A stretch of 64,000 nucleotides of DNA from Escherichia coli. Lineage in GTDB: Bacteria > Pseudomonadota > Gammaproteobacteria > Enterobacterales > Enterobacteriaceae. Below the pieces are notes generated by a model, which did not search any database, was not told the DNA's origin, and saw nothing but the letters and a program-made list of their open reading frames with translations. The stretch lies in NCBI RefSeq assembly GCF_044647545.1, contig NZ_CP172818.1; one strand, 5' to 3'. The stretch's first letter is position 1. Each line of letters opens with the position of its first letter. The position numbers and the translations under genes are program-made. Below, piece after piece: positions 32,763-43,193 of the stretch.

Positions 32763-34136
32763 GTGGATCATTTGCCTATATTTTGCCAATTACGCGATCG
32801 CGACTGTCTGATTGTCGGCGGTGGTGATGTCGCGGAACGCAAAGCAAGGTTGCTGTTAGACGCAGGCGCTCGCTTAACGGTGAATGCATTAGCGTTTATT
32901 CCACAGTTCACCGCATGGGCAGATGCAGGCATGTTAACCCTCGTCGAAGGGCCATTTGATGAAAGCCTTCTCGACACCTGCTGGCTGGCGATTGCAGCGA
33001 CAGATGATGACGCGCTTAACCAGCGCGTCAGTGAAGCCGCTGAAGCTCGTCGCATCTTCTGTAACGTGGTCGATGCGCCGAAAGCCGCCAGCTTTATTAT
33101 GCCGTCAATTATTGACCGCTCACCGCTCATGGTCGCGGTCTCCTCTGGCGGCACCTCTCCGGTTCTGGCACGCCTGTTGCGTGAAAAACTTGAATCACTG
33201 CTGCCGTTGCATCTGGGCCAGGTAGCGAAATACGCCGGGCAATTACGCGGTCGAGTGAAACAACAGTTCGCCACAATGGGTGAACGTCGCCGTTTCTGGG
33301 AAAAACTGTTCGTTAATGACCGTCTGGCGCAGTCGCTGGCAAACAACGATCAGAAAGCCATTACTGAAACGACCGAACAATTAATCAACGAACCGCTCGA
33401 CCATCGCGGTGAAGTGGTGCTGGTTGGCGCAGGTCCGGGCGATGCCGGGCTGCTGACACTGAAAGGACTGCAACAAATTCAGCAGGCAGATGTGGTGGTC
33501 TACGACCGTCTGGTTTCTGACGATATTATGAATCTGGTACGCCGCGATGCTGATCGCGTTTTCGTCGGCAAACGCGCGGGATACCACTGCGTACCGCAGG
33601 AAGAGATTAACCAGATCCTGCTGCGGGAAGCGCAAAAAGGCAAACGCGTGGTGCGACTGAAAGGCGGCGATCCGTTTATTTTTGGCCGTGGTGGCGAAGA
33701 GCTGGAAACACTGTGCAATGCAGGCATTCCGTTCTCGGTGGTTCCGGGTATTACCGCAGCTTCTGGTTGCTCTGCCTATTCGGGTATTCCGCTCACGCAT
33801 CGCGATTATGCCCAGAGCGTACGCTTAATTACCGGACACTTAAAAACCGGTGGCAAACTGGACTGGGAAAACCTGGCGGCAGAAAAACAGACGCTGGTGT
33901 TCTATATGGGGTTGAATCAGGCCGCGACTATTCAGCAAAAGCTGATTGAACACGGTATGCCTGGCGAAATGCCGGTGGCAATTGTCGAAAACGGAACGGC
34001 AGTCACGCAGCGCGTGATTGACGGTACGCTCACGCAGCTGGGCGAACTGGCGCAGCAAATGAACAGTCCATCGCTAATTATTATTGGTCGGGTTGTTGGC
34101 CTGCGCGATAAATTGAACTGGTTCTCTAACCATTAA
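32763..34136 (+). CDS. cysG: Sirohaem synthase (uroporphyrinogen-III methyltransferase / dehydrogenase / ferrochelatase)
   Basis: 457 aa [35 protein letters not shown]... with C-terminal [15 protein letters not shown] methylase motif. Confidence 0.95.
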
Positions 34137-34144
34137 TTTAACCA

Positions 34145-34168
34145 GGGCCAGAGAATTCTGGCCTTTTT
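34145..34168 (+). terminator. Rho-independent terminator of the nirBDC-cysG operon
   Basis: Hairpin gggccagagaattctggcc followed by ttttt, immediately after the cysG stop. Confidence 0.7.
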
Positions 34169-34386
34169 CGTTTACAACTCTCTTTATATATTCAGCAGAT
34201 AAAAATACCCCCCTTAATAAATATTATCTGCTAATGGGTTATATTCACCGTTACAGCGACTTACAAAATTAAGTCATTCGTTCACTGACGCCAATTAAAT
34301 ATTCCTGTATCATTCTTAATGAGCAGTCTGCTTATATTCATATAATCAATGAATATTAATCAATATATAATACATAGGGAATGTAA

Positions 34387-34554
34387 ATGAACAAATTTAT
34401 TAAAGTTGCACTGGTAGGTGCGGTACTGGCTACGTTAACTGCATGTACTGGTCATATTGAAAACCGTGATAAGAACTGCTCTTACGACTACCTGCTGCAC
34501 CCAGCTATTTCTATTTCTAAAATCATTGGCGGTTGCGGTCCTACTGCACAGTAA
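34387..34554 (+). CDS. yhfL: Small lipoprotein YhfL
   Basis: 55-codon ORF MNKFIKVALVGAVLATLTACTGHIENRDKNCSYDYLLHPAISISKIIGGCGPTAQ with lipobox LTAC; below the ORF-track size cut-off. Confidence 0.7.
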   Translation: MNKFIKVALVGAVLATLTACTGHIENRDKNCSYDYLLHPAISISKIIGGCGPTAQ

Positions 34555-34619
34555 GTCTCTGACAGAAATTGGCTGATGCTGATTTATTGCCTGCGCCCTC
34601 GGGTTTCCGGGGTCCAGAA

Positions 34620-35705
34620 TTAAACGTCGGCAATACTCTCGCGCAAAATCCGCAATACCGTCTCTTCACCGCTGCGATTTGGGTTAATACGAATCGCGTA
34701 ATGTTCGAGTTGCGGATTCGCCTGGCGAAACGTTCCGGAAAGTCGATAAAAAAGTGGCGGAATTTCATATTTCGACTCCGCGCCCACCGGATACGGCAAC
34801 GCGCCGCGTTTCTGCGCCTCCTCCAGCACCCTGGCGGCAATCGGCTGATGAAACTCGACAATCAACACCTTCGACTGTGCATTGGCAATGACGGCGCTTT
34901 TCACTTCCGGAACTGCACCACCGTTGAGCAAGGCCAGCAACCGCTCAGATACCCCCGCCTGCACCGCGTGCATCACTGGCGCAAACACCAGCCCACGCAA
35001 GACTTCCAGCGCCTGAGCGCCCTGAATCTGGCTGCCGCCGGAATAGAGCGTGGCGCGAATACGGTTAATAACATCAGCATCGCCTACCACCGCGCCAACA
35101 CCCTCTGGCCCAAATAGCTTGAAGCAGGAAAATGTCGAGACATTCGCCCCGCATTCACAGCCAATGCTCGCCACCTTCATCACCGCATAGTTGTCATCGG
35201 TTAAGACTGGAACCCCTGCCGCGCACAACGTTGCCAGCACATCTGCCAGTACATAGCTGTCCTGCGGCTGCTGGCGCGTATGCTGCACCAGCGCCGCATC
35301 CGGTTGTTGCTCGTCGACGACCTGCTTAAGTGCCGACAGGTCATTGAAATTAGCAGTAATAAGCGTCAGCCCCATCTGCTCAATAATGACCTGAGTCGTC
35401 GGGTAAACCGGCGCGTCATGCACCAGAAGACGCTGCCCCGGTTTGAGCAAAGCCGCCAACGCCGCACGGATCGCGCCAGTACCCGCGCCCTGTACCAGCG
35501 CCGCAGCCTGTGCGTGAAACGCGTCAGCCAGCACCTGTTCCACACGCTGGGTAATGCGCGGTTGATTCAGTCCCGGCGTTAATCCCAAATCACCGCAGGT
35601 AAGAAATTCGCTACCAGGAAAATGGCGACAAATGCTATCCACCAGCGCAAACTGCTTTTGCTGCGCCTCAATAATCGTCAGGCTTTGCAGAGGAAACGTC
35701 TTCAT
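34620..35705 (-). CDS. yhfS: PLP-dependent enzyme YhfS (uncharacterised)
   Basis: 361 aa ORF; last gene of the yhfZ-yhfS same-strand block. Confidence 0.8.
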   Translation of the reverse strand: MKTFPLQSLTIIEAQQKQFALVDSICRHFPGSEFLTCGDLGLTPGLNQPRITQRVEQVLADAFHAQAAALVQGAGTGAIRAALAALLKPGQRLLVHDAPVYPTTQVIIEQMGLTLITANFNDLSALKQVVDEQQPDAALVQHTRQQPQDSYVLADVLATLCAAGVPVLTDDNYAVMKVASIGCECGANVSTFSCFKLFGPEGVGAVVGDADVINRIRATLYSGGSQIQGAQALEVLRGLVFAPVMHAVQAGVSERLLALLNGGAVPEVKSAVIANAQSKVLIVEFHQPIAARVLEEAQKRGALPYPVGAESKYEIPPLFYRLSGTFRQANPQLEHYAIRINPNRSGEETVLRILRESIADV

Positions 35706-35716
35706 AGGTGCCTTCC

Positions 35717-37021
35717 TTAAGCCGGAACGAACAGGCCAAGCCAGTAAAGAACATTCAGCAGAATACCGGTGATCATTACTGCCACGACCGGTGCCGCCAT
35801 TTTCTGTACCGGACGGCCCAGGGATTCGTTGAGGAAGTAAATGGCAACTGCGATAGAGAATCCGGTATAACCCGCCATTTTAATTGCTGCGAAAATCGAA
35901 CCGACCAGCAACGCCACTTCCATCAGCATATTCATGGCGTTACGGATGTTATCCGACGCATTACGCACCGACGGGTAGCGCCCCAGCCATTTGCCGATCG
36001 AACGAAGCAGCAAGACTTCCGCCGAAATAACCACTGCGCCTAATACCGCTGCAACCATCGGATTCGGCGAGAGATAGCCCACCGCATAAACAAAGGTAAA
36101 GCCCGCAACTGCATATACGCCGGTGGCTAACGCGGTGGTGGCAATCAACGGCACAAAACCCAGTCCGCGCATAAATTCCGCCAGAGCTGCCTGGTTGATT
36201 AGTGTTTGCGATTGTTCCGGCGTTACGCCTGCGGAGTACGCTTTCTCCAGAGTGAAGATCGACACTTCACTACCGGCGAAAATCTTCATGCTGGCAACGG
36301 CGGCAATCAATGCTCCCACGATGGCGATATACGGTAAGTTTTTGATAATCCGTGACGTGCGTTCTTCAAACACCGAAAGCCCGCTGGCATCAATGTCATT
36401 TTCATCACGATGACGCAGGTCGTGAGTTATCGCGATCCCCAGCAGCATCACCATACCAATAAAGATTTCGATGGATTCAGGGTTAAGATGTGGGAAATAG
36501 TGCACGACGACCACACGGGTCATCAGTACCACCACGGCGGCGATCAGACTTTGCTTCCAGCCAAACTGGTAGAAAATCGCCACCAGCGGGAAGAGTGCAA
36601 AAGCTGAAACCACCGGCGAGCTTAATTCCCCGAGGCTACCTAATACATCCACCGGTAGCGCGGTCAGCAGCTGGTTTACTGGCAACAGACAGGTGAGGAT
36701 CAACACGCCCCAGATAGCGCCAAGACCAAACGCCATCAGGCTGTTTATCGCCAGTACGCCGAGGATATCGGTAGGAAGAAAGAGTAACCATGCGTTGAGC
36801 AGCCCGGTTTTCAGGGTAAAAGAGATCCCCACCGAGGCCACAAAACCAATGCTCAGACCAAAAGCGATACTCCCCGCCTCGCGACGGTTCATATAGCCTT
36901 CAATCAGTTGTGGCAGGATCGGGCGGATACCGTCATGAAAAACGGCCGCCGAGCGATGCGCCAGAAGCGATGTCATACCCGTCAGGCACGCCACCACGAT
37001 AATCTGAATATACAGATCCAT
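35717..37021 (-). CDS. yhfT: Multi-pass membrane protein YhfT (putative transporter)
   Basis: 434 aa ORF, strongly hydrophobic throughout. Confidence 0.8.
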   Translation of the reverse strand: MDLYIQIIVVACLTGMTSLLAHRSAAVFHDGIRPILPQLIEGYMNRREAGSIAFGLSIGFVASVGISFTLKTGLLNAWLLFLPTDILGVLAINSLMAFGLGAIWGVLILTCLLPVNQLLTALPVDVLGSLGELSSPVVSAFALFPLVAIFYQFGWKQSLIAAVVVLMTRVVVVHYFPHLNPESIEIFIGMVMLLGIAITHDLRHRDENDIDASGLSVFEERTSRIIKNLPYIAIVGALIAAVASMKIFAGSEVSIFTLEKAYSAGVTPEQSQTLINQAALAEFMRGLGFVPLIATTALATGVYAVAGFTFVYAVGYLSPNPMVAAVLGAVVISAEVLLLRSIGKWLGRYPSVRNASDNIRNAMNMLMEVALLVGSIFAAIKMAGYTGFSIAVAIYFLNESLGRPVQKMAAPVVAVMITGILLNVLYWLGLFVPA

Positions 37022-37032
37022 AGTCGTGCCTT

Positions 37033-37386
37033 TTATTTCAGATGGTTAATCAGCATCGGAATCGCGTGTTCAACGTGCTCAACGGAAAGGCCAAACGCCA
37101 CTTTTCCTTCAGCGATCATTTTGGCGATATGTTCGTCTTTCGCTTTAATGCCCGGTTTGGCAATGGTGCAACTTTTGTTATAGCCAATCACCGCGATGGC
37201 AATCGACAATGCCGCGCCCGCACCGGTATTACACGCACCGATGTAGTAATCCAGTTGCCCGGATTTCACTTTCATTGCCGCTTCCATGTCGTTGTGAATG
37301 AAAACTTCGAAACAGCCAGGAGCCGTCGCTTCAATGGTTTTTTTAATCTGCTCACGCTGTAAGCCTGCAACACCAATCTTTTTCAT
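37033..37386 (-). CDS. yhfU: Small uncharacterised protein YhfU
   Basis: ORF ...MKKIGVAGLQREQIKKTIEATAPGCFEVFIHNDMEAAMK...; start placed at the internal Met (117 aa). Confidence 0.75.
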   Translation of the reverse strand: MKKIGVAGLQREQIKKTIEATAPGCFEVFIHNDMEAAMKVKSGQLDYYIGACNTGAGAALSIAIAVIGYNKSCTIAKPGIKAKDEHIAKMIAEGKVAFGLSVEHVEHAIPMLINHLK

Positions 37387-37396
37387 GAGTCTGTCC

Positions 37397-38275
37397 TTAT
37401 TGGAAAAATTGAGAGGGATTTTCACGTAACATCACATCCACATCGGCCTGACTGAATCCTGACTGGCGCAATTGCGGAATAAAGGTGGTCAATAAAAAGT
37501 CATAGCCATAACCACCGTTGGCTTTTAAATGAGAGCGCCGCGTAATATCCATCGACAGCATGACGCGGTTCAGCAACCCACGGTCACGTAGCGCATGGAG
37601 CATCGCAATCCGCTTTTCGTCCGGGTAGTAACTGTTCTTGCCGATGGTGTCGAACTGCACATACGCGCCGAGATCGATCATCTTCAAAATGTTGTCGAGA
37701 TTGTCTTTCAGATCGCAGTGGCCGACGGTGACGCGCGAAAGATCAACTCCGTGGGCTTGCAACAGAGCCAGTTGCTCCAGCCCCATGGTGCTAAAAGAGG
37801 TATGCGTGGAGATCGGACGTCCGGTCTGGTTATGTGCCAGCGCGGCGGCAATAAACACCTTCTCTTCCAGCGGCGTAATCTTCCCTTCGCTGGAGCCGAT
37901 CTCCGCGATGATCCCGGCTTTCAGCTCCGTGCCATCGATACCCTGCTCAATTTCATCGACCATCTCCTGCGCCAGTTCCTGCACGCTGCGGGTCGCCACA
38001 TGTTCCGGGAAAAACGCGTCCTGGTAATAACCGGTACAGGCCACCACGTTGATCCCGGTTTCGCGCATTACATCGAGCATAAATTGTGCATTGCGCCCCA
38101 TGTAACGGTTGGTCATCTCAATCACATTACGCACACCCAGTGCCATCAGGTCGTTCATCTCCTGGCAAATGAACGCATACTGATCAAGGCGGCAGTCCAC
38201 GTTGTTTTTAAAGCCGGAGAGATCAATATGCAGATGCTCATGGGCCAGGGTGTAGCCCGTTGAATCAAAACTCAT
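37397..38275 (-). CDS. php: Phosphotriesterase-homology protein (amidohydrolase superfamily, binuclear metal centre)
   Basis: 292 aa [25 protein letters not shown]... with HxH motif. Confidence 0.85.
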
Positions 38276-39498
38276 AGGGTGTCTCCTGCAAACCGGAGGG
38301 AGGAAAGAAAAGAGCGACCATTTTGTGGCGGTGGCGCACGGAAAAATTCACACACGGTAGCGCCCACATCGGAGAGCGTGGTGCGAACACCAAGCTGCGT
38401 GGCAGCCAGGCCTTGCTGATAAACCAGCACCGGCACGACTTCGCGGGTATGGTGGCTGTGACCGATTGTCGGATCGTTACCGTGATCCGCCATCACGACC
38501 AGGCAATCATCTGGCTGCATCGTCTCAACCAGGAGAGCAAGATTACGGTCAACGACCTGCAAACGTTCGGCATAACGTGCGACGTCTTCTGCGTGACCAG
38601 CGAGGTCGGTTTCCTGAATGTTGGTGCAAATAAACGCTGTCTGATGGGTGATAAATTCGTCGAGGGTGATATCCATAATCCGCTGGCTATCCACCAGGTT
38701 TTGCCAGCTCACGCCATAAGGATTGTTGACGATATCTGCCACCTTACCCACCAGCACGGTTGGCACGCCTGCTTCATACAGTTTTTGTGGCACCTGCACT
38801 TTTTCATCGACGCCATAGCCCATATGCACGACCTGGAAACCGTTGTCATAAGCGCCAGAACGCGGCGCGTTGATGCCAATAAAGCGCCCTTCTTTGCTTT
38901 CTGCGGCATCGAGAATGCGTTGACTGTCGGTTAACAGGCCGCCAAATGTAATGACCCGCCCGACCGGTACCTGCTCACGCACGATACGACCAATTTTGAT
39001 TGCGTCGTCAAAAGAGACCACAGAGAGATTGGCGGTGATGTTATAGACCTGGCCTAAATCCGCCTCGAGATTATCGCCAATCGCAACCGCCTGATTGACC
39101 CACAGAAATTGCAACTCTTCGCCACGGCGCTCCACCTGCCAAGCGGCGGAAACTAATGCCTGCTCAACACGGTCAATCACATCGCGAAAAGGCATCCGCA
39201 GCGGCGGTAACGGGCGCGTGCCTAAAATTTCCTGATGCCCCATAAAGGTATCGCCACCTTCATGTTGCAGCTCTGCCACACCCCAGGTTGCGGAGTCTGA
39301 CGGCTGCATATCACCTGGCGCATAACCCAATGCGTTGATTAGCCCCAACTTCTCCAGCGTTGGTAGCTGCAAATGCGGCAGCTGGCTCAGGATGTGACCA
39401 CAAGTATTCGCCCCGGCATCCTGTGGACGCACCAGCGTGACATCTTTCATTGCGCCTACGCCAAAGCTATCAATCACTAACACCACAAATCGCGCCAT
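38272..39498 (-). CDS. yhfW: Phosphopentomutase-like metalloenzyme YhfW
   Basis: 408 aa ORF with [16 protein letters not shown] metal-binding motif typical of DeoB-like mutases; 4-nt overlap with php. Confidence 0.8.
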
Positions 39499-40661
39499 TA
39501 CGCCCCCAGAGAGTTTCCAAGACTGTCATAACGACCGACGATTTCCGGTTCGCCACGGTGAATACCGGACAGCAACACCACATCGCTACGGGTGACAAAA
39601 ATCTGCGTGCGAAAACAGAGCACTACTGCACTGCTTACCGGAAACTCGCCTGCCAGCGGCAGGGTGTAGTCGATACTGCTGTCATCCACAGTTTTGAGAT
39701 TGGTTTCAGTAATCTTTTGATTTTCTGGCGTAAACACCAGCGCATGTTGCGCGTGACCACGACGGTAGTAACCGCCGCCGTAGCAGTAGCTGTCGCCACG
39801 GAAATGATGGGAGATTTCACTTAACCAGAGCATCGCGATACGTTCAGGCTGATCGCCCTGCTGGTTTGCCGGAATAGTGCCCGTCAGCGCATGACCGGGT
39901 TCGGCATGAGTCACACCGTATTCCGCCAGCAATGGCAGCGAAGTGCAGCTGGTCGCTGAAGGCGCGTTCAGTTGCTCAATCGCAATACCAGATTTCGCCA
40001 GTTGATCCCGTGCTTGTACCAGCGTGTGAAGATTCGGTGTCGGCAAAACTTTCCCGACAGCTTCATCCCAAAGCAGGCAAGGGAAATGGGTAAGTCCAGC
40101 TAAATGCAGCCCCGGCAGTTTCTTAATTTCAGCAACCACCTCGTGCAGCGAATGCTGTACAAAACCGCTCTCCTGCCCCGGATAAAGAAAATCATCGTCG
40201 CTATAAACTTTGAGCAGCACAGACTGCACACGTCCGGCCTTCACCGCTGCCGCAGAAACTTCCCGCGCTTTGTCGAGAGTAAACACGGTGATGACGTCGG
40301 TTCCCTGTGCAACGGCGTCAACCACCTGATGACAAGGGATTTGTACCAAATGCCCCTGATGCGCCACCGGCAAACCAGCGCGGCGCATGACTCGCGCCTC
40401 TTTGTAATCCACCGCCACAATGCCGCTGTAGCCTAATGCCAGCAGTTTTTCCGCCAGCCACGGATTACGACCAAACTGCTTGGTCATCAGATACAGTTCA
40501 ATGCCGTAAAGCCGCGCCGTCTCAATCAGCCGCTTACCGTTTTCCAGTATCTGATCCACGTCGATCACCCAGCTGTCCGGGGCGATCTTGCCCTTTTGCC
40601 ACAAACTTAGTGCGGCGGAAATTAGCGCCGGGTTCTGGCGTTTCAATGCTTCTACAAACAT
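39498..40661 (-). CDS. yhfX: Alanine-racemase-fold PLP-dependent protein YhfX
   Basis: 387 aa ORF; 1-nt overlap with yhfW. Confidence 0.8.
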
Positions 40662-40744
40662 CTTGTTGCCTCGTTTCTGTTCCTTGAATTAAATATTCAT
40701 TTTTTTGAATATTTAGGTTGTGCGACGTGGATTTGTCGGGAGCT

Positions 40745-41107
40745 TCAAACCTCTTCGTTAGCAGCCATCCATAATCCATAAAGGTTGGCCAGCAAATAGC
40801 CTTCTTCACACGGGTTAACTTCCAGTGCAAATTCCTTCAACAACACCTGATGCAATTGCACAACGGCTTGCCAGTGGCTGGATTGCGCCAGTTCTGCCAG
40901 CAATTCGTTATCCAGCGGCTCTATTTCTTCACCGCGGCGACTGCGCATCAGTGCGCTCGCCATATGTGTCATCGCCATCGTTCCTTGCTCACTGCGCACT
41001 GGCAGATGGAACTCTGTTTCCAGTACGTTGACGACCTGCATCATGCCTTTGCAGATGTCCTTATCAATAACGCCTGCCTCGCAAAGCAGGTTGAGTCTGG
41101 TTTCCAT
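40745..41107 (-). CDS. yhfY: Small PRD-like protein YhfY
   Basis: 120 aa ORF METRLNLLCEAGVIDKDICKGMMQVVNVLETEFHL... Confidence 0.75.
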   Translation of the reverse strand: METRLNLLCEAGVIDKDICKGMMQVVNVLETEFHLPVRSEQGTMAMTHMASALMRSRRGEEIEPLDNELLAELAQSSHWQAVVQLHQVLLKEFALEVNPCEEGYLLANLYGLWMAANEEV

Positions 41108-41123
41108 TTCAGATGCCTTTCAT

Positions 41124-42029
41124 TTAATAACTGGGTTCCTGTTCCCCACTCACCACTCGTTGTTGATGGGCAAGCAGGGCCTGTTTATCAACCACTGCAC
41201 GCAGCAGTTGTTGCATTGGGTAATCATCGACTCGCGTCAGGACCACGGCTTCGGTGGCCTGTAAAAATCGCGGATCGTCTGTGAGCGGCGTCGCTTCTAA
41301 TCCCAGCATGGTCAGTTCGTTTTCCGCCACCACGTTCCAGATCACCGCATCGACATCGCCTTTAACAATGCGTTGTAAACTCTCGTGATAAGAGAGATCG
41401 ACACGTTCCACATCACTATCGCCAAAAAAGACATCGGTCATGATTTTCTGATCCGCCGAACGGTTATCCAGCCCCACGCGCTTCACGTTTGCGGACTCGC
41501 CTTTACGGCAAATCAACTGGTGCTCGCCAACGTAGGTGTGCGGCCCCAACTCCAGCGCGAGGCATAAGCCTTTTTGCGTGAGATAACTTTCCGCCGCCAG
41601 TCGGGAAACAACCGCCATGTCATACACGCCGTTAAGTAAACACTCCACGCGAATATCCGCGCCGCGCATATGCGCATAGTAAAAAGGAATACCATCAAAC
41701 TGAGCTTTCAATCCGCTCGCCAGGCCTTCGTACAAACGGGTATAGGGCAAGGGCATCGCGCACACCACATTGTTGATATCTACATGAGTCAGCAATGCTT
41801 TGTTATCCATCTCGACCAGATAACTGCCATTGCGCCCACGGCGTTCAATCCGTATCGCTCCGCTTGATTCCAGCGTTTTCAACGCGGCCTGCGTCAGGCC
41901 AACCGATGAACGGCATTCAGTTGCCAGCTCATCTATGGTTTTCAGTCGATTACCGCACTTTTCACCCAACAAATAACGGGCCAGTGTCGTGATAACGACG
42001 CCTTCTTTTTTGATAAACGTTCGACGCAT
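41124..42029 (-). CDS. yhfZ: Putative transcriptional regulator YhfZ (N-terminal wHTH plus ligand-binding-like domain)
   Basis: 301 aa ORF MRRTFIKKEGVVITTLARYLLGEKCGNRLKTIDELATECRSSVGLTQAALKTLESSGAIRIERRGRNGSYL... Confidence 0.75.
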   Translation of the reverse strand: MRRTFIKKEGVVITTLARYLLGEKCGNRLKTIDELATECRSSVGLTQAALKTLESSGAIRIERRGRNGSYLVEMDNKALLTHVDINNVVCAMPLPYTRLYEGLASGLKAQFDGIPFYYAHMRGADIRVECLLNGVYDMAVVSRLAAESYLTQKGLCLALELGPHTYVGEHQLICRKGESANVKRVGLDNRSADQKIMTDVFFGDSDVERVDLSYHESLQRIVKGDVDAVIWNVVAENELTMLGLEATPLTDDPRFLQATEAVVLTRVDDYPMQQLLRAVVDKQALLAHQQRVVSGEQEPSY

Positions 42030-42147
42030 AATATATTTTCAATAAAATGAATGTTTATATCTTCATTAAAATGAAGATAAGTGGCAACTGTGAGATGTGG
42101 AAACGGCGAGGTGCTTCACATTTTTTCGGATTATTGCAAATGAGGAT

Positions 42148-42173
42148 AAAAAAACCGGGTTTCCCCGGTTTTT
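42148..42173 (-). terminator. Rho-independent terminator of trpS
   Basis: aaaaaaccgggtttccccggttttt hairpin with flanking A and T runs, between the trpS stop and the yhfZ start. Confidence 0.7.
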
Positions 42174-42188
42174 GGCATTAATGTTAAA

Positions 42189-43193
42189 TTACGGCTTCGC
42201 CACAAAACCAATCGCTTCGTACACCGCTTTCAGCGTACGAGAAGCGTGTGCACTGGCTTTTTCCGCGCCGTCTTTCATCACCTGTTGCAGGAAGGCTTCA
42301 TCGTTGCGGAAACGGTGATAACGTTCCTGCAATTCAGTCAGCATACCGGAAACGGCATCAGCCACTTCGCCTTTGAGATGACCATACATCTTGCCTTCGA
42401 ACTGTTTTTCCAGTTCCGGGATGCTCTGGCCCGTTACCGCAGAAAGGATATCCAGCAGGTTGGAAACGCCCGCTTTGTTCTGCACATCGTAGCGAACTAC
42501 CGGCGGCTCGTCGGAGTCAGTGACCGCACGTTTGATTTTCTTCACTACCGATTTCGGATCTTCCAGCAGGCCGATAACGTTATTGCGGTTATCGTCAGAC
42601 TTGGACATCTTTTTGGTCGGCTCCAGCAGCGACATTACGCGCGCGCCGGATTTCGGAATAAACGGCTCCGGCACTTTAAAGATCTCGCCATACAGCGCGT
42701 TGAAACGCTGGGCGATATCGCGGCTCAGTTCCAGGTGCTGTTTCTGGTCTTCACCCACCGGTACCAGATTAGTTTGATACAGCAGGATGTCCGCAGCCAT
42801 CAGCACCGGATAGTCAAACAGACCAGCATTGATGTTCTCGGCATAACGCGCAGATTTATCTTTAAACTGCGTCATGCGGCTCAGTTCGCCGAAGTAGGTA
42901 TAGCAGTTCAGTGCCCAGCCTAACTGTGCATGTTCCGGCACGTGGGACTGAACAAAAATGGTGCTTTTCTCAGGATCGATACCACAAGCCAGATACAAGG
43001 CCAGCGTATCCAGCGTCGCTTTACGCAGCTTCTGTGCATCCTGGCGCACGGTGATCGCGTGTTGGTCAACGATACAGTAAATGCAATGGTAGTCATCCTG
43101 CATGTTTACCCACTGACGCAGCGCACCCATGTAGTTACCAATGGTCAATTCACCTGAGGGCTGTGCGCCACTAAAAACGATGGGCTTAGTCAT
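42189..43193 (-). CDS. trpS: Tryptophan--tRNA ligase
   Basis: 334 aa [32 protein letters not shown]... with KMSKS motif. Confidence 0.95.

Follow-up and report, generated by a model that had tools for sequence, protein, structure and literature searches.

The yhfZ-yhfS cluster of E. coli is already well known and is still without an assigned function. We propose, at a probability of roughly 45%, that it encodes a YhfZ-repressed, PTS-coupled catabolic pathway for a carbohydrate derivative that bears an amino group and carries a hydrolysable ester or amide. Coupling to the PTS is probable, and the nutrient is most likely amino-sugar-like. No substrate or pathway for these genes is documented in the literature searched, NCBIfam (June 2026), RefSeq names or PDB titles, as the original prediction had stated. 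Three findings are new to this analysis: a putative operator, TTCA-W6-TGAA; the lack of any solved structural relative of YhfT; and links of the cluster, in several lineages, to HPr, Enzyme I or cellobiose-type PTS genes, the last missed in the original prediction.

Eight ORFs occupy the minus strand at 34620-42029 of the window, the whole 64-kb stretch of DNA analysed, in the order yhfZ-yhfY-yhfX-yhfW-php-yhfU-yhfT-yhfS (Table 1). The RefSeq annotation of FDAARGOS_497, a 99.9% identical strain, has the identical eight genes. As claimed earlier, yhfX and yhfW overlap by 1 nt and yhfW and php by 4 nt; the gaps are 16 nt (yhfZ/yhfY), 10 nt (php/yhfU), and 11 nt (both yhfU/yhfT and yhfT/yhfS), and the only sizeable one is the 83 nt between yhfY and yhfX. 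The mechanical ORF for yhfU opens at GTG 37425, and the RefSeq ATG was used for its length. Comparison with a divergent E. coli gave dN/dS values of 0.016-0.175 across all eight genes, i.e., purifying selection similar in strength to that on trpS, gph and rpe. Given these values, and a gene set that recurs in 80 genomes of four phyla, the eight ORFs are genuine coding sequence and not chance ORFs.

Table 1. Genes and control elements of the yhf cluster (window coordinates).
Feature	Position	Strand	Description
trpS intrinsic terminator	42150-42173	-	AAAAACCGGG-N4-CCCGGTTTTT, then T run; perfect 10-nt inverted repeat
CRP-like site	42105-42120	-	TGTGAAGCACCTCGCC (TGTGA-N6-TCnCn), ~84 nt 5' of yhfZ ATG
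Operator O1 (putative)	42058-42079	.	Perfect palindrome TATCTTCATT-TT-AATGAAGATA
Operator O2 (putative)	42038-42051	.	TTCAATAAAATGAA; begins ~22 nt 5' of yhfZ ATG
yhfZ	41124-42029	-	301 aa
yhfY	40745-41107	-	120 aa
Operator O3 (putative)	40690-40715	.	Perfect palindrome TAAATATTCA-N6-TGAATATTTA, yhfY/yhfX gap
yhfX	39498-40661	-	387 aa
yhfW	38272-39498	-	408 aa
php	37397-38275	-	292 aa
yhfU	37033-37386	-	117 aa, counted from RefSeq ATG
yhfT	35717-37021	-	434 aa
yhfS	34620-35705	-	361 aa

At least 5059 of 5426 complete E. coli genomes carry the cluster, so that it is not peculiar to this strain, as had been said; a contiguous copy is missing from about 7% of them, and some assemblies hold truncated or fused versions. 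Genome-neighbourhood comparison found the same genes clustered, in shuffled order, in the Enterobacterales, Vibrionaceae, Fusobacteria, Clostridia and Bacillales, with no further universally conserved neighbour. The recurrent set is yhfZ, yhfU, yhfT, php, yhfX and yhfW, usually with yhfY, and yhfX accompanies yhfU and yhfT in nearly all loci. The gene yhfS, absent from Yersinia, Vibrionaceae and several Clostridia, is an accessory, optional member, and some lineages lack yhfW or php, yhfW being absent from several Yersinia. The co-travel of the genes across phyla agrees with the self-contained module of uptake, catabolism and regulation that had been predicted, and we read the cluster as such a module, catabolic and horizontally mobile.

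The trpS terminator bounds the yhf control region upstream. The TGTGA of the CRP-like site is invariant, and the TC six bases further nearly so, among 12 aligned sequences of 11 genera, the upstream flank being otherwise without conservation. It is this conservation that supports the site, the frequency of the bare pattern in the window not being above chance, and it suggests activation of the control region by cAMP-CRP. The three putative operators have identical TTCA-W6-TGAA cores, at 42062-42075 in O1 and at 40696-40709 in O3 (TTCATTTTTTTGAA). O1 is kept at about -47 relative to the yhfZ ATG throughout Enterobacteriaceae, and O2 lies 24 bp from it, centre to centre. The three occurrences in the window, against 0.03 expected, all fall within yhf control regions, two before yhfZ and one before yhfX. 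Within 150 nt upstream of yhfZ orthologues, TTCA-N6-TGAA has a density of 6.6 per kb versus 0.06 per kb elsewhere, an enrichment of about 100-fold over a background taken from 1.5 Mb of loci; it was found there in 29 of 30 non-Yersinia Enterobacterales, 14 of 18 Vibrionaceae and 5 of 9 Yersinia. Sites with an AT spacer are almost confined to the regions upstream of yhfZ, yhfX, yhfY, yhfU or a yhfZ-adjacent Vibrio PTS operon. A search of the Firmicutes yhf loci found no such motif.

In the yhfY/yhfX intergenic region, O3 and the ribosome-binding site are the only blocks conserved across about 10 genera, and O3 is presumably the control site of an internal promoter driving yhfX through yhfS. A RegulonDB-derived table lists the unit yhfX-W-php-U-T-S, without yhfZ and yhfY; promoter and terminator scans gave results at chance level. 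Because of the conserved O3 in the 83-nt gap and the RegulonDB-derived unit, the simple eight-gene operon of the original prediction is improbable, although its genes and junctions stand. More probably there are two regulated promoters, PyhfZ and PyhfX, perhaps with some read-through across the gap.

Pfam and NCBIfam bore out all the earlier domain assignments. YhfZ combines a winged HTH (HTH_41) with the YhfZ_C ligand-binding domain, whose structure, 2OZZ, is titled 'hypothetical' in the PDB, and it scores 373 bits against NCBIfam NF041241 (cut-off 260 bits). We presume that YhfZ is a repressor that binds O1-O3. YhfY is a stand-alone PRD-type protein in which His48, Ala52, Arg55 and Glu101 are invariant in an orthologue alignment, the PRD His-Ala-Arg signature being retained; Pfam PRD was found on the orthologues in two other loci (L008 and L089).

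YhfT is a polytopic membrane protein of a small family (PF10797) with no structural relative among solved structures; it is presumed to be a permease and is probably a transporter of a type so far undescribed. YhfU, previously described just as a small protein, is indeed small, but is not an incidental member. It is a DUF2620 protein with the RpiB/LacAB fold and an invariant Cys52 within a glycine-rich loop; among known structures it resembles ribose-5-phosphate isomerase B and LacAB most closely, and LMW-PTP and PTS EIIB more weakly. The yhfU and yhfT genes are neighbours at all loci of the genome scan; of the five metagenome or distant loci, four show the same adjacency and the fifth (L091) is without yhfU. 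In one locus (L006) they occur as a pair alone. YhfU is an obligate partner of YhfT.

The PTS links are found in other genomes. L077, L079 and L080 have an HPr gene directly 3' of yhfW, and L073 has an Enzyme I gene that overlaps the yhfW end; such adjacency is seen in only 4 of the 13 Firmicutes loci. A Lac/Cel-family EIIC gene is within the cluster of L008, and in Vibrio and Photobacterium a Cel-type IIB-IIC-IIA operon with the same operator motif stands beside yhfZ or a yhfZ paralogue. The gene immediately 3' of the cluster is nagB (above the curated cut-off) in four of five Bacillales. Against the PTS-coupled reading, neither E. coli nor any other proteobacterial yhf cluster encodes an EIIA-type protein or a PTS general component, nagB is linked to the cluster in a single order, the motif is not found in Firmicutes, and YhfZ binding is sequence-predicted. 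Some neighbours also point elsewhere, i.e., ATP-grasp genes in L089, and the phosphatase, nucleotidase and nucleosidase genes discussed below.

YhfX is a fold-type III (alanine-racemase-like) PLP enzyme (Pfam Ala_racemase_N and YhfX-like_C; structure 4KBX, titled 'uncharacterized'). YhfW is a phosphopentomutase-like metalloenzyme of the alkaline-phosphatase superfamily (NCBIfam PRK12383); on comparison with Bacillus cereus phosphopentomutase 3M8W, the catalytic motifs all align and the cap domain is divergent. Php is a binuclear-metal amidohydrolase of the phosphotriesterase (PTE) family (Pfam PTE, NCBIfam PRK09875; structures 1BF6 and 4LEF). The motifs quoted earlier for Php (HEHLH) and YhfW were found, and the metal ligands H12, H14, E125, H158, H186 and D243 of Php, numbered as in the 1BF6 literature, are readable in the sequence. 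Php reportedly (Nemmara et al., Biochemistry 2018) hydrolyses phosphorylated acetyl esters only and no lactones, its substrates being acetylated glycerol-3-phosphates, with an absolute requirement for the phosphate group and low catalytic efficiency. That activity, the PTS links and nagB agree with the phosphorylated or ester-containing amino compound of the original prediction. Overexpressed Php supplies a phosphorylated C4 keto-acid pool (PMC3010111), and PTER, its mammalian homologue, is an N-acetyl-taurine/beta-alanine deacetylase (PMC11374699, PMC13311154). YhfS is a fold-type I PLP enzyme (Pfam Aminotran_1_2 and YhfS-like_C; structure 4J8L).

In the pathway that we propose, YhfZ would occupy the three palindromes, two overlapping the yhfZ promoter region and one before yhfX, and would repress yhfZ-yhfY, its own unit, together with yhfX-yhfW-php-yhfU-yhfT-yhfS; binding of a pathway intermediate to its C-terminal domain would lift the repression. 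cAMP-CRP would activate through the conserved TGTGA-N6-TC. For uptake, YhfT would form the membrane channel, with the small cytoplasmic YhfU as co-worker. Phosphoryl groups would pass from Enzyme I to HPr and on to the invariant Cys52 loop of YhfU, and YhfY might be an intermediate phosphoryl carrier or a sensor signalling transport status to YhfZ. If YhfU receives the PTS phosphoryl group, the substrate would therefore enter the cell phosphorylated. Judging by their families, Php would strip the phosphorylated intermediate of an acyl or ester group. YhfX would use PLP to racemise, epimerise or eliminate at the carbon that bears the amino group; YhfW would move the phosphate from one hydroxyl to another, and YhfS, if present, would perform a second PLP step. 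The product would reach central metabolism as hexosamine-6-phosphate/fructose-6-phosphate or pentose phosphate.

An unlikely alternative does without the PTS: the pathway would serve an amino compound of ribosyl or nucleoside-like character, e.g., S-ribosylhomocysteine, a ribosylated amine or an aminoacyl-nucleoside. Uptake would be left to YhfT as a conventional secondary carrier; YhfW would be a genuine pentose-phosphate 1,5-mutase, YhfU would form a subunit of an RpiB-type sugar-phosphate isomerase in the cytoplasm, and the PLP enzymes would dispose of the amino-acid part. Phosphopentomutases are indeed the closest characterised relatives of YhfW, and YhfS weakly matches the Met-gamma-lyase/CGS family of Cys/Met metabolism and OSHS sulfhydrylase. 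PhoC and e(P4) 5'-nucleotidase (periplasmic phosphatase) genes follow yhfT in Enterobacter sp. BIGb0383 and Pluralibacter, and an MTA/SAH nucleosidase adjoins a distant YhfT homologue, but no true yhf cluster has a nucleoside phosphorylase or hydrolase. The RpiB-like fold of YhfU would also fit, and Cys52-x-Thr54 pairs with RpiB Cys66-x-Thr68 in an alignment that is not significant. YhfU, however, falls some 30 residues short of RpiB in length, is assigned to the RpiB family by neither Pfam nor NCBIfam, and in that one alignment has no counterparts of the catalytic N-terminal Asp-His, His-Asn and C-terminal arginines of RpiB. The constant YhfU-YhfT adjacency, also as a lone pair, suits a transport partner better than a soluble enzyme; the HPr, Enzyme I and PRD links would go unexplained, and several Yersinia do without yhfW. 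Distinctly less plausible is a route like Salmonella dga for D-glucosaminate or galactosaminate, or their lactones or N-acyl forms. A 2-amino-2-deoxy-aldonate would be phosphorylated as it enters. The task of Php would be to open a lactone or lactam, or to strip an N-acyl group, and that of YhfX to epimerise the alpha-amino acid centre or dehydrate it; YhfS would be a DgaE-like ammonia-lyase, and a host aldolase would cleave the keto-deoxy-sugar phosphate. YhfS and YhfY weakly match TIGR03576 and TIGR03582 (a PRD protein) of the EF_0829/AHA_3910 cluster. These TIGRFAMs derive from a Firmicutes/Aeromonas cluster of the same overall architecture as yhf, in which a KDPG-type aldolase, an amidohydrolase, membrane proteins and a small glycine-rich 'SFCGS' protein are also encoded. 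Fold-type III PLP enzymes include beta-hydroxy-D-amino acid dehydratases and aldolases, and Php weakly matches phospho-furanose lactonase; Php is said, however, not to hydrolyse lactones. Moreover, yhf clusters have no aldolase gene, yhfS is dispensable in numerous lineages, YhfW would have no obvious role, and nagB in Bacillales indicates an amino sugar rather than an amino-sugar acid.

We consider it very unlikely that the cluster recovers glycerol phosphate esterified with aminoacyl or acetyl groups from the envelopes of Gram-positive bacteria. Examples would be teichoic-acid units with D-alanyl or GlcNAc substituents and the head groups of lysyl/alanyl-phosphatidylglycerol. Php would cut the ester, YhfX would racemise the freed D-alanine or basic amino acid, and YhfW would shift the phosphate of glycerol between positions 1 and 3, turning sn-glycerol-1-P into sn-glycerol-3-P. 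This would suit the sole reported Php substrates, the alanine-racemase N-domain of YhfX and its nearest named relative, ornithine racemase (a weak match), the terminal-to-terminal phosphate shift of phosphopentomutase chemistry, and a Bacillales nagB able to manage GlcNAc. The low reported efficiency of Php, however, suggests promiscuity; with a substrate phosphorylated from the outset, the PTS, HPr and PRD links would have no explanation, and glycerol-phosphate dehydrogenase or glycerophosphodiesterase genes are never in the cluster. The idea is largely an inference. That the cluster is cryptic or decaying, with no present physiological role in E. coli, is hardly credible. The literature searched yields no phenotype or inducing condition, and the truncated, fused and missing copies would fit decay, but purifying selection on all eight genes is strong and comparable to that on trpS, gph and rpe, the operators and CRP-like site are kept across genera, and the cluster is maintained in four phyla.

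The ORF listing showed eight minus-strand ORFs filling exactly 34620-42029, as the original prediction had it, and the 1-nt overlap of yhfX with yhfW and the 4-nt overlap of yhfW with php were both correct. The remaining junctions are gaps of 10-16 nt, with the sole exception of yhfY/yhfX, which are separated by 83 nt. The domain calls made earlier from the sequence were each borne out by Pfam and NCBIfam. For yhfU, a mechanical ORF call gives a GTG start at 37425 and a product of 130 aa, overlapping the end of php (37387-37425). RefSeq and the orthologue alignment back the ATG at 37386 (MKKIGVAG...).

Genes of the yhf cluster, the adjoining yhfL, and putative regulatory sites
Feature	Coordinates	Strand	Product length	Pfam/NCBIfam assignment or position
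yhfZ	41124-42029	-	301 aa	HTH_41 + YhfZ_C
yhfY	40745-41107	-	120 aa	weak PRD match
yhfX	39498-40661	-	387 aa	Ala_racemase_N + YhfX-like_C
yhfW	38272-39498	-	408 aa	Metalloenzyme (PRK12383)
php	37397-38275	-	292 aa	PTE
yhfU	37033-37386	-	117 aa (RefSeq start)	DUF2620
yhfT	35717-37021	-	434 aa	PF10797
yhfS	34620-35705	-	361 aa	Aminotran_1_2 + YhfS-like_C
yhfL	34387-34554	+
TTCA-W6-TGAA core	42062-42075			upstream of yhfZ
TTCA-W6-TGAA core	42038-42051			upstream of yhfZ, 24 bp from the core at 42062-42075
TTCA-W6-TGAA core	40696-40709			upstream of yhfX
CRP-like site (candidate)	42105-42120

The locus is not new, because its genes have long been known as E. coli y-genes; they are among the best-conserved E. 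coli genes without a known function, a recognised open problem more than a surprise. The window is 99.9% identical to strain FDAARGOS_497, in which RefSeq names the same eight genes, with trpS on one side and yhfL/cysG on the other. Nor, as anticipated, is the cluster novel to this strain, since the yhf region was matched at a coverage of at least 80% in 5059 of 5426 complete E. coli genomes. Compared with the divergent E. coli strain TW08637, dN/dS was 0.016-0.175 for all eight genes, and trpS, gph and rpe fell in the same range. The view that the cluster is a cryptic remnant made of pseudogenes is contradicted by these low values, and it was rejected on that account. In the same comparison dS is uneven along the cluster (0.357 for yhfS and 0.209 for yhfW; 0.068-0.082 for yhfY, yhfX, yhfU and trpS), and identity to the window reaches at least 99% in just 82 of 5427 records, most being at about 95.5%. 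The uneven dS and the few near-identical records suggest old allelic lineages or recombination within the cluster.

Full-text literature searches yielded no substrate or pathway for the yhf genes, and neither NCBIfam release 20 (June 2026) nor the current RefSeq product names give the proteins a function. Four of the proteins have crystal structures (YhfS, 4J8L; YhfX, 4KBX; the YhfZ C-domain, 2OZZ; Php, 1BF6 and 4LEF), and the PDB entries are titled "uncharacterized", "hypothetical" or "homology protein". The original statement that no substrate had been assigned therefore holds for all these sources. A literature match to b3379 turned out to be a plasmid name, and one to b3380 was a gap-filling guess at E 0.47. 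The sole experimental fact on the cluster found in the literature is that php overexpression rescues a pdxB deletion, via a route yielding 2-oxo-3-hydroxy-4-phosphobutanoate (PMC3010111).

The distribution of the cluster was studied with a genome scan seeded by a 12-sequence YhfT alignment, which returned 80 loci; a 34-sequence YhfT alignment held no stretch conserved enough to serve as a search seed. Gene orders in the fetched loci (numbered with the prefix L) were assigned by comparing ORFs with the eight proteins of the window. YhfT belongs to a small family, of which 1.84 billion proteins contain 305 representatives at 50% identity. Clustering of all flanking ORFs in the fetched loci gave no further universally conserved neighbour, and the frequent neighbours cysG, nir, trpS, gph, rpe and dam are plain enterobacterial synteny. 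The same genes thus recur in the 80 loci without any other universal neighbour, in agreement with the earlier suggestion of a self-contained module, and the yhf cluster is a mobile, self-contained module. The recurrent set consists of yhfZ, yhfU, yhfT, php, yhfX and yhfW, mostly accompanied by yhfY, and yhfS is accessory. Reduced forms include yhfU-yhfT alone (L006), yhfU-yhfT-yhfX-yhfW in Enterovibrio (L061, L067, L070; no regulator, PRD protein or php), yhfW-yhfX-yhfU-yhfT (L090), and PRD-yhfU-yhfT-php-yhfS-yhfX (L089). Given these reduced forms, yhfU-yhfT is the most tightly linked unit, and among the enzyme genes yhfX stays with it most consistently. None of the enzymes in the set is required in all lineages. 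In several Yersinia (L041, L044-L048, L051, L052) yhfW is lacking from an otherwise intact cluster. The distant cluster at L089 11815-15917, which has no mutase gene, is followed by three consecutive ATP-grasp genes.

The control regions of the cluster contain two perfect palindromes with 10-nt arms, TATCTTCATT-TT-AATGAAGATA upstream of yhfZ, at 42058-42079, and TAAATATTCA-N6-TGAATATTTA in the yhfY/yhfX gap, at 40690-40715. Both share the core TTCA-W6-TGAA, which occurs exactly three times in the 64-kb window against 0.03 expected. In the fetched loci the density of TTCA-N6-TGAA is 6.6/kb in the 150 nt upstream of yhfZ orthologues versus 0.06/kb elsewhere. The motif is carried by 29 of 30 non-Yersinia Enterobacterales, 14 of 18 Vibrionaceae and 5 of 9 Yersinia; none of 13 Firmicutes has it upstream of yhfZ, and related palindromes likewise do not recur there. 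Sebaldella has three copies around yhfZ, of which the upstream one starts too near the ATG to be included in the count. Sites with an AT-rich spacer are found almost exclusively upstream of yhfZ (about 70), yhfX (16), yhfY (3) or yhfU (2), or of a cellobiose-type PTS operon adjoining yhfZ in Vibrio. When both control regions were aligned across 10-11 genera, the operator cores stood out as conserved islands amid unconserved DNA. YhfZ itself is a GntR-type regulator (PF14502, HTH_41, plus PF14503, YhfZ_C), scoring 373.5 bits against the NF041241 equivalog, for which the cut-off is 260. Judged from these sequence data, YhfZ probably binds the TTCA-W6-TGAA palindromes.

The most economical reading of the operators is that YhfZ would autoregulate yhfZ-yhfY through the palindromes upstream of yhfZ and control a second promoter driving yhfX through yhfS, and that cAMP-CRP would act as activator; the start sites and the extent of read-through we infer. 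A RegulonDB-derived table lists php, yhfS, yhfT, yhfU, yhfW and yhfX as one unit, without yhfZ and yhfY (PMC4448311). Six of the junctions are overlapping or no longer than 16 nt, and it is the 83-nt gap that bears the conserved operator. The CRP-like site, a TGTGA with TC six bases on, is proposed only because the TGTGA is invariant across the aligned genera; matches to the CRP consensus with at most two mismatches number 31 in the window against 27 expected, which is no enrichment. Promoter and terminator consensus scans gave counts equal to the shuffle expectation, so that neither a start site nor a convincing internal terminator could be assigned. A weak hairpin follows yhfS, with z -1.3 and lacking a U tract. 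An Rfam scan (34000-42400, E<=1) gave no family, and therefore no riboswitch or leader.

YhfU has a cysteine, Cys52, that is invariant in 28 orthologues, within the glycine-rich motif DYYxGAC(N/E)(T/S)G(A/G)G(A/G)A. Because both single-sequence and profile searches against PDB sequences reached RpiB only at E 0.3-0.9, a fold search was needed, and this assigned YhfU the RpiB fold, which has three alpha/beta layers; its cysteine follows strand 3. The Cys52 loop aligns with the Cys-Gly-Thr catalytic loop of E. coli RpiB in a profile alignment that is not significant; in this hhalign comparison, solely the Cys-x-Thr loop and the AFG strand align. We take the RpiB catalytic set to be an N-terminal Asp-His, Cys-x-Thr, His-Asn and C-terminal Arg residues. 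Counterparts of the remaining catalytic and phosphate-binding residues were not found in the YhfU alignment, and YhfU, with about 30 residues fewer than RpiB, stops short of the C-terminal arginines. By sequence YhfU does not belong to the RpiB family, as Pfam gives DUF2620 only and NCBIfam no match. It also differs from RpiB/LacAB in length (117 aa versus 148-212 aa in four matched chains) and in being genetically tied to a membrane protein. YhfU is thus RpiB-like in fold only. The membrane protein, YhfT, has no sequence or fold similarity to any known EIIC family. YhfT and YhfU probably form an uptake unit. YhfY has the PRD signature, with H48, A52, R55 and E101 invariant (the first three in 23 orthologues), and the second canonical His is found solely in Firmicutes. 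The Pfam PRD model, PF00874, recognises the YhfY orthologues in loci L008 and L089; E. coli YhfY itself has no Pfam match, and reaches 28 bits with TIGR03582, for which the cut-off is 69.

Several loci link the cluster to the phosphotransferase system (PTS). An HPr-family gene lies directly 3' of yhfW in three Clostridia loci (L077, L079, L080), and a fourth, L073, has a complete Enzyme I gene overlapping yhfW at its end. In the metagenome locus L008 a YhfZ fragment opens the cluster and a Lac/Cel-family EIIC closes it. A Cel-type IIB-IIC-IIA operon that includes a DUF7916 gene is found in Vibrio and Photobacterium, either diverging from yhfZ or adjacent to a second yhfZ paralogue; it bears the same TTCA-N6-TGAA motif, and is probably a further YhfZ-type regulon. 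Such operons lie at L054 4258-7153, at L062 17211-19778 and 20577 onward, and in L065; the DUF7916 product is a TIM-barrel with faint similarity to the DeoC/LacD aldolases.

These appended or co-regulated PTS genes are one likeness to systems made of a PTS permease and a PRD regulator (BglF/BglG, LicT, Lac/Cel EIIABC). The others are a membrane component paired with a small cytoplasmic protein, the invariant cysteine in a glycine-rich loop, a PRD signature with a conserved histidine, and downstream enzymes that act on phosphorylated substrates. The PTS gene links, the PRD protein and the protein bearing the cysteine loop together make phosphorylation of the incoming substrate by the PTS the best single explanation, which we nevertheless hold only tentatively. 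Against it, PTS components are absent from all the proteobacterial yhf clusters, EIIA genes were found in none of the yhf clusters, and the YhfU cysteine is not at the EIIB position, where the P-loop follows strand 1. Further differences are that YhfT matches no EIIC, that the PRD of YhfY stands alone instead of forming part of an antiterminator or activator, and that the DNA-binding regulator is a GntR-type wHTH protein. A bolder form of the explanation, which we consider rather unlikely, is that YhfT-YhfU-YhfY constitute an undescribed PTS permease family, the enzymes behind it forming a new route for an amino-sugar conjugate derived from the gut or environment. YhfT would then be a membrane component with a new fold, RpiB-fold YhfU would carry a phosphocysteine instead of a classical EIIB, and YhfY would either replace EIIA or couple transport to the repressor YhfZ.

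Among the enzymes, YhfW has all the catalytic motifs of the phosphopentomutase DeoB from B. cereus (3M8W), including HTRE. The two share the alkaline-phosphatase-superfamily core, the Asp/His metal residues and the Thr nucleophile motif (GDT..GH), residues that presumably serve as metal ligands and nucleophile in YhfW as in the phosphopentomutases. The cap is divergent and aligns poorly, residues 176-239 being unaligned, and YhfW falls short of both the DeoB equivalog TIGR01696 (144.8 bits, cut-off 341.2) and PRK05362 (181.7 bits, cut-off 256), passing only PRK12383, the YhfW-type model itself. In no locus did yhfW occur alongside deo genes, and deoB is a separate gene in E. coli. Retention of the motifs, divergence of the cap and failure at the DeoB cut-offs together predict that YhfW is a phosphomutase of altered specificity. 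YhfX, a fold-type III PLP enzyme (PF01168, the Ala_racemase_N barrel, plus PF21279), matches no defined racemase, with 35 bits for Orr against a cut-off of 480. YhfS, with an aminotransferase-fold domain (PF00155 plus PF22475), is far below the cut-off of every specific NCBIfam model, the best being Met gamma-lyase (38.8 versus 549.7 bits).

Php belongs to the PTE family (PF02126), shares the TIM-barrel binuclear-metal amidohydrolase fold, and matches 1BF6 and 4LEF at 1e-193 and the PLLs and PTE at 1e-40 to 1e-29. The translated sequence has the binuclear-metal ligands H12, H14, E125, H158, H186 and D243, of which Glu125 presumably stands where PTE has a carboxylated lysine. Php lies below the cut-offs of the OPH equivalog (101 versus 500 bits) and the phospho-furanose lactonase equivalog (97 versus 630). 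In work by Nemmara et al. (Biochemistry, 2018) Php reportedly acted on phosphorylated glyceryl acetates at a modest efficiency and with a requirement for the phosphate group, and hydrolysed no lactone in vitro. The helical insertion of eukaryotic PTER (residues 35-75 in sponge PTER) is commonly missing from bacterial phosphotriesterases. Mammalian PTER is a hydrolase of N-acetyltaurine and N-acetyl-beta-alanine (PMC11374699, PMC13311154), so that deacetylases acting on small anionic compounds are also found in the PTE family.

On the substrate, neighbours confined to particular lineages point in different directions. A nagB gene, above its curated cut-off, lies directly 3' of the cluster in four of five Bacillales, suggesting a hexosamine-6-phosphate product and pointing to an amino sugar. 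An amidase-signature-like gene of 343 aa lies between yhfT and yhfS in Sebaldella (L063 11347-12378), and Clostridium citroniae has a 768-aa YhfT-amidase fusion (AFDB entry G5HJH7); both point to a possible amide bond in the substrate. The yhfS position, 3' of yhfT, is occupied in Enterobacter sp. BIGb0383 and Pluralibacter gergoviae by genes for secreted acid phosphatases (L042 11341-13044; L039 11339-12154), namely periplasmic PhoC class A and/or an e(P4) 5'-nucleotidase lipoprotein. At L091 8001-9978 a 26%-identical YhfT homologue without a DUF2620 partner is followed by an MTA/SAH nucleosidase gene, which may be coincidence or may mean that the wider YhfT family carries ribosyl compounds. 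The phosphatase and nucleosidase neighbours hint at a nucleoside or pentose-type compound. A D-lactate/D-2-hydroxyacid dehydrogenase gene is near the cluster in two Firmicutes (L080 15468-16502; L076 5233-6195), and in L076 a gene for a ComB-like 2-phosphosulfolactate phosphatase follows nagB.

The reading we prefer, at a probability of about 45% for the whole scheme, is a repressor-controlled uptake and catabolic pathway for an amino-group-bearing carbohydrate derivative. Uptake would phosphorylate the substrate. Of the enzymes, Php would cleave off an ester or N-acyl group, YhfW would move the phosphate to another position, and YhfX would carry out PLP chemistry on the carbon bearing the amino group, with YhfS contributing a second, optional PLP step. 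That the substrate is of the amino-sugar class specifically is, taken alone, doubtful. One rival is a pathway for ribosyl compounds with an RpiB-type isomerase. The YhfU fold and the phosphatase and nucleosidase genes are in keeping with it; set against these are the missing RpiB catalytic residues. Another rival is salvage of glycerophosphate esters, to which the activity attributed to Php would be suited, modest as it is said to be.

A third rival is an aminoaldonate pathway like that of Salmonella dgaABCDEF, the D-glucosaminate PTS. The dga genes and the uncharacterised EF_0829-EF_0839/AHA_3910 cluster (TIGR03576-TIGR03582), whose composition is presumed, share an architecture with yhf: small PRD and glycine-rich proteins, one or more membrane proteins, and amidohydrolase-superfamily and fold-type I PLP enzymes. 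The scores behind this link are far below the cut-offs, for YhfY as already described and for YhfS with TIGR03576 (22 versus 304 bits). In addition, the yhf cluster has no aldolase, and dga/EF lack its fold-type III PLP enzyme and its phosphomutase. Overall, yhf would work like a repressor-controlled sugar-catabolic PTS operon, yet it fails every specific family test that would name a function: EIIC for YhfT, RpiB (beyond the fold) for YhfU, DeoB for YhfW, OPH or phospho-sugar lactonase for Php, and the defined PLP enzymes for YhfX and YhfS.

The cluster becomes open to direct testing through its operator, its PTS links and the fold of YhfU. Now that the operator is defined and a repressor is probable, derepression and reporter construction are feasible, Cys52 of YhfU offers a testable phosphotransfer hypothesis, and the substrate classes are reduced to a short list. 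If the PTS coupling is real, there would be a new permease family in a system whose E. coli members are considered completely catalogued, and a function for DUF2620, PF10797 and a bacterial relative of PTER, the mammalian enzyme regulating feeding and obesity. The identity of the nutrient would reveal a near-universal niche resource common to E. coli and many gut, marine and soil bacteria.

In many E. coli strains, including TW08637, yhfL and yhfS are separated by the fructoselysine operon frlABCDR, which is also the neighbour of yhf in K-12. Like yhf in the proposed scheme, frl is an amino-sugar-conjugate catabolic operon with a GntR-type regulator; the two have no homologous genes. Since yhf is intact in the window and in FDAARGOS_497 despite the absence of frl, and is present without frl in many genera, the adjacency is not functional evidence, and a functional link was rejected. 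From the cysG stop to the yhfS stop (34136-34620) the window retains solely yhfL and a low-GC spacer (0.39). About half of the sampled rows of the genome ranking align only from query position 814 onward, the part before it matching elsewhere in the record, in line with the presence of frl in those strains. On the other side of the cluster, the trpS-yhfZ spacer is 159 nt in the window (42030-42188) and 268 nt in TW08637 (L002 16418-16685). A BIME/REP "attenuator" cluster has been described in front of yhfZ in enterobacteria (PMC2965389), and the additional spacer DNA in other strains is probably this repeat.
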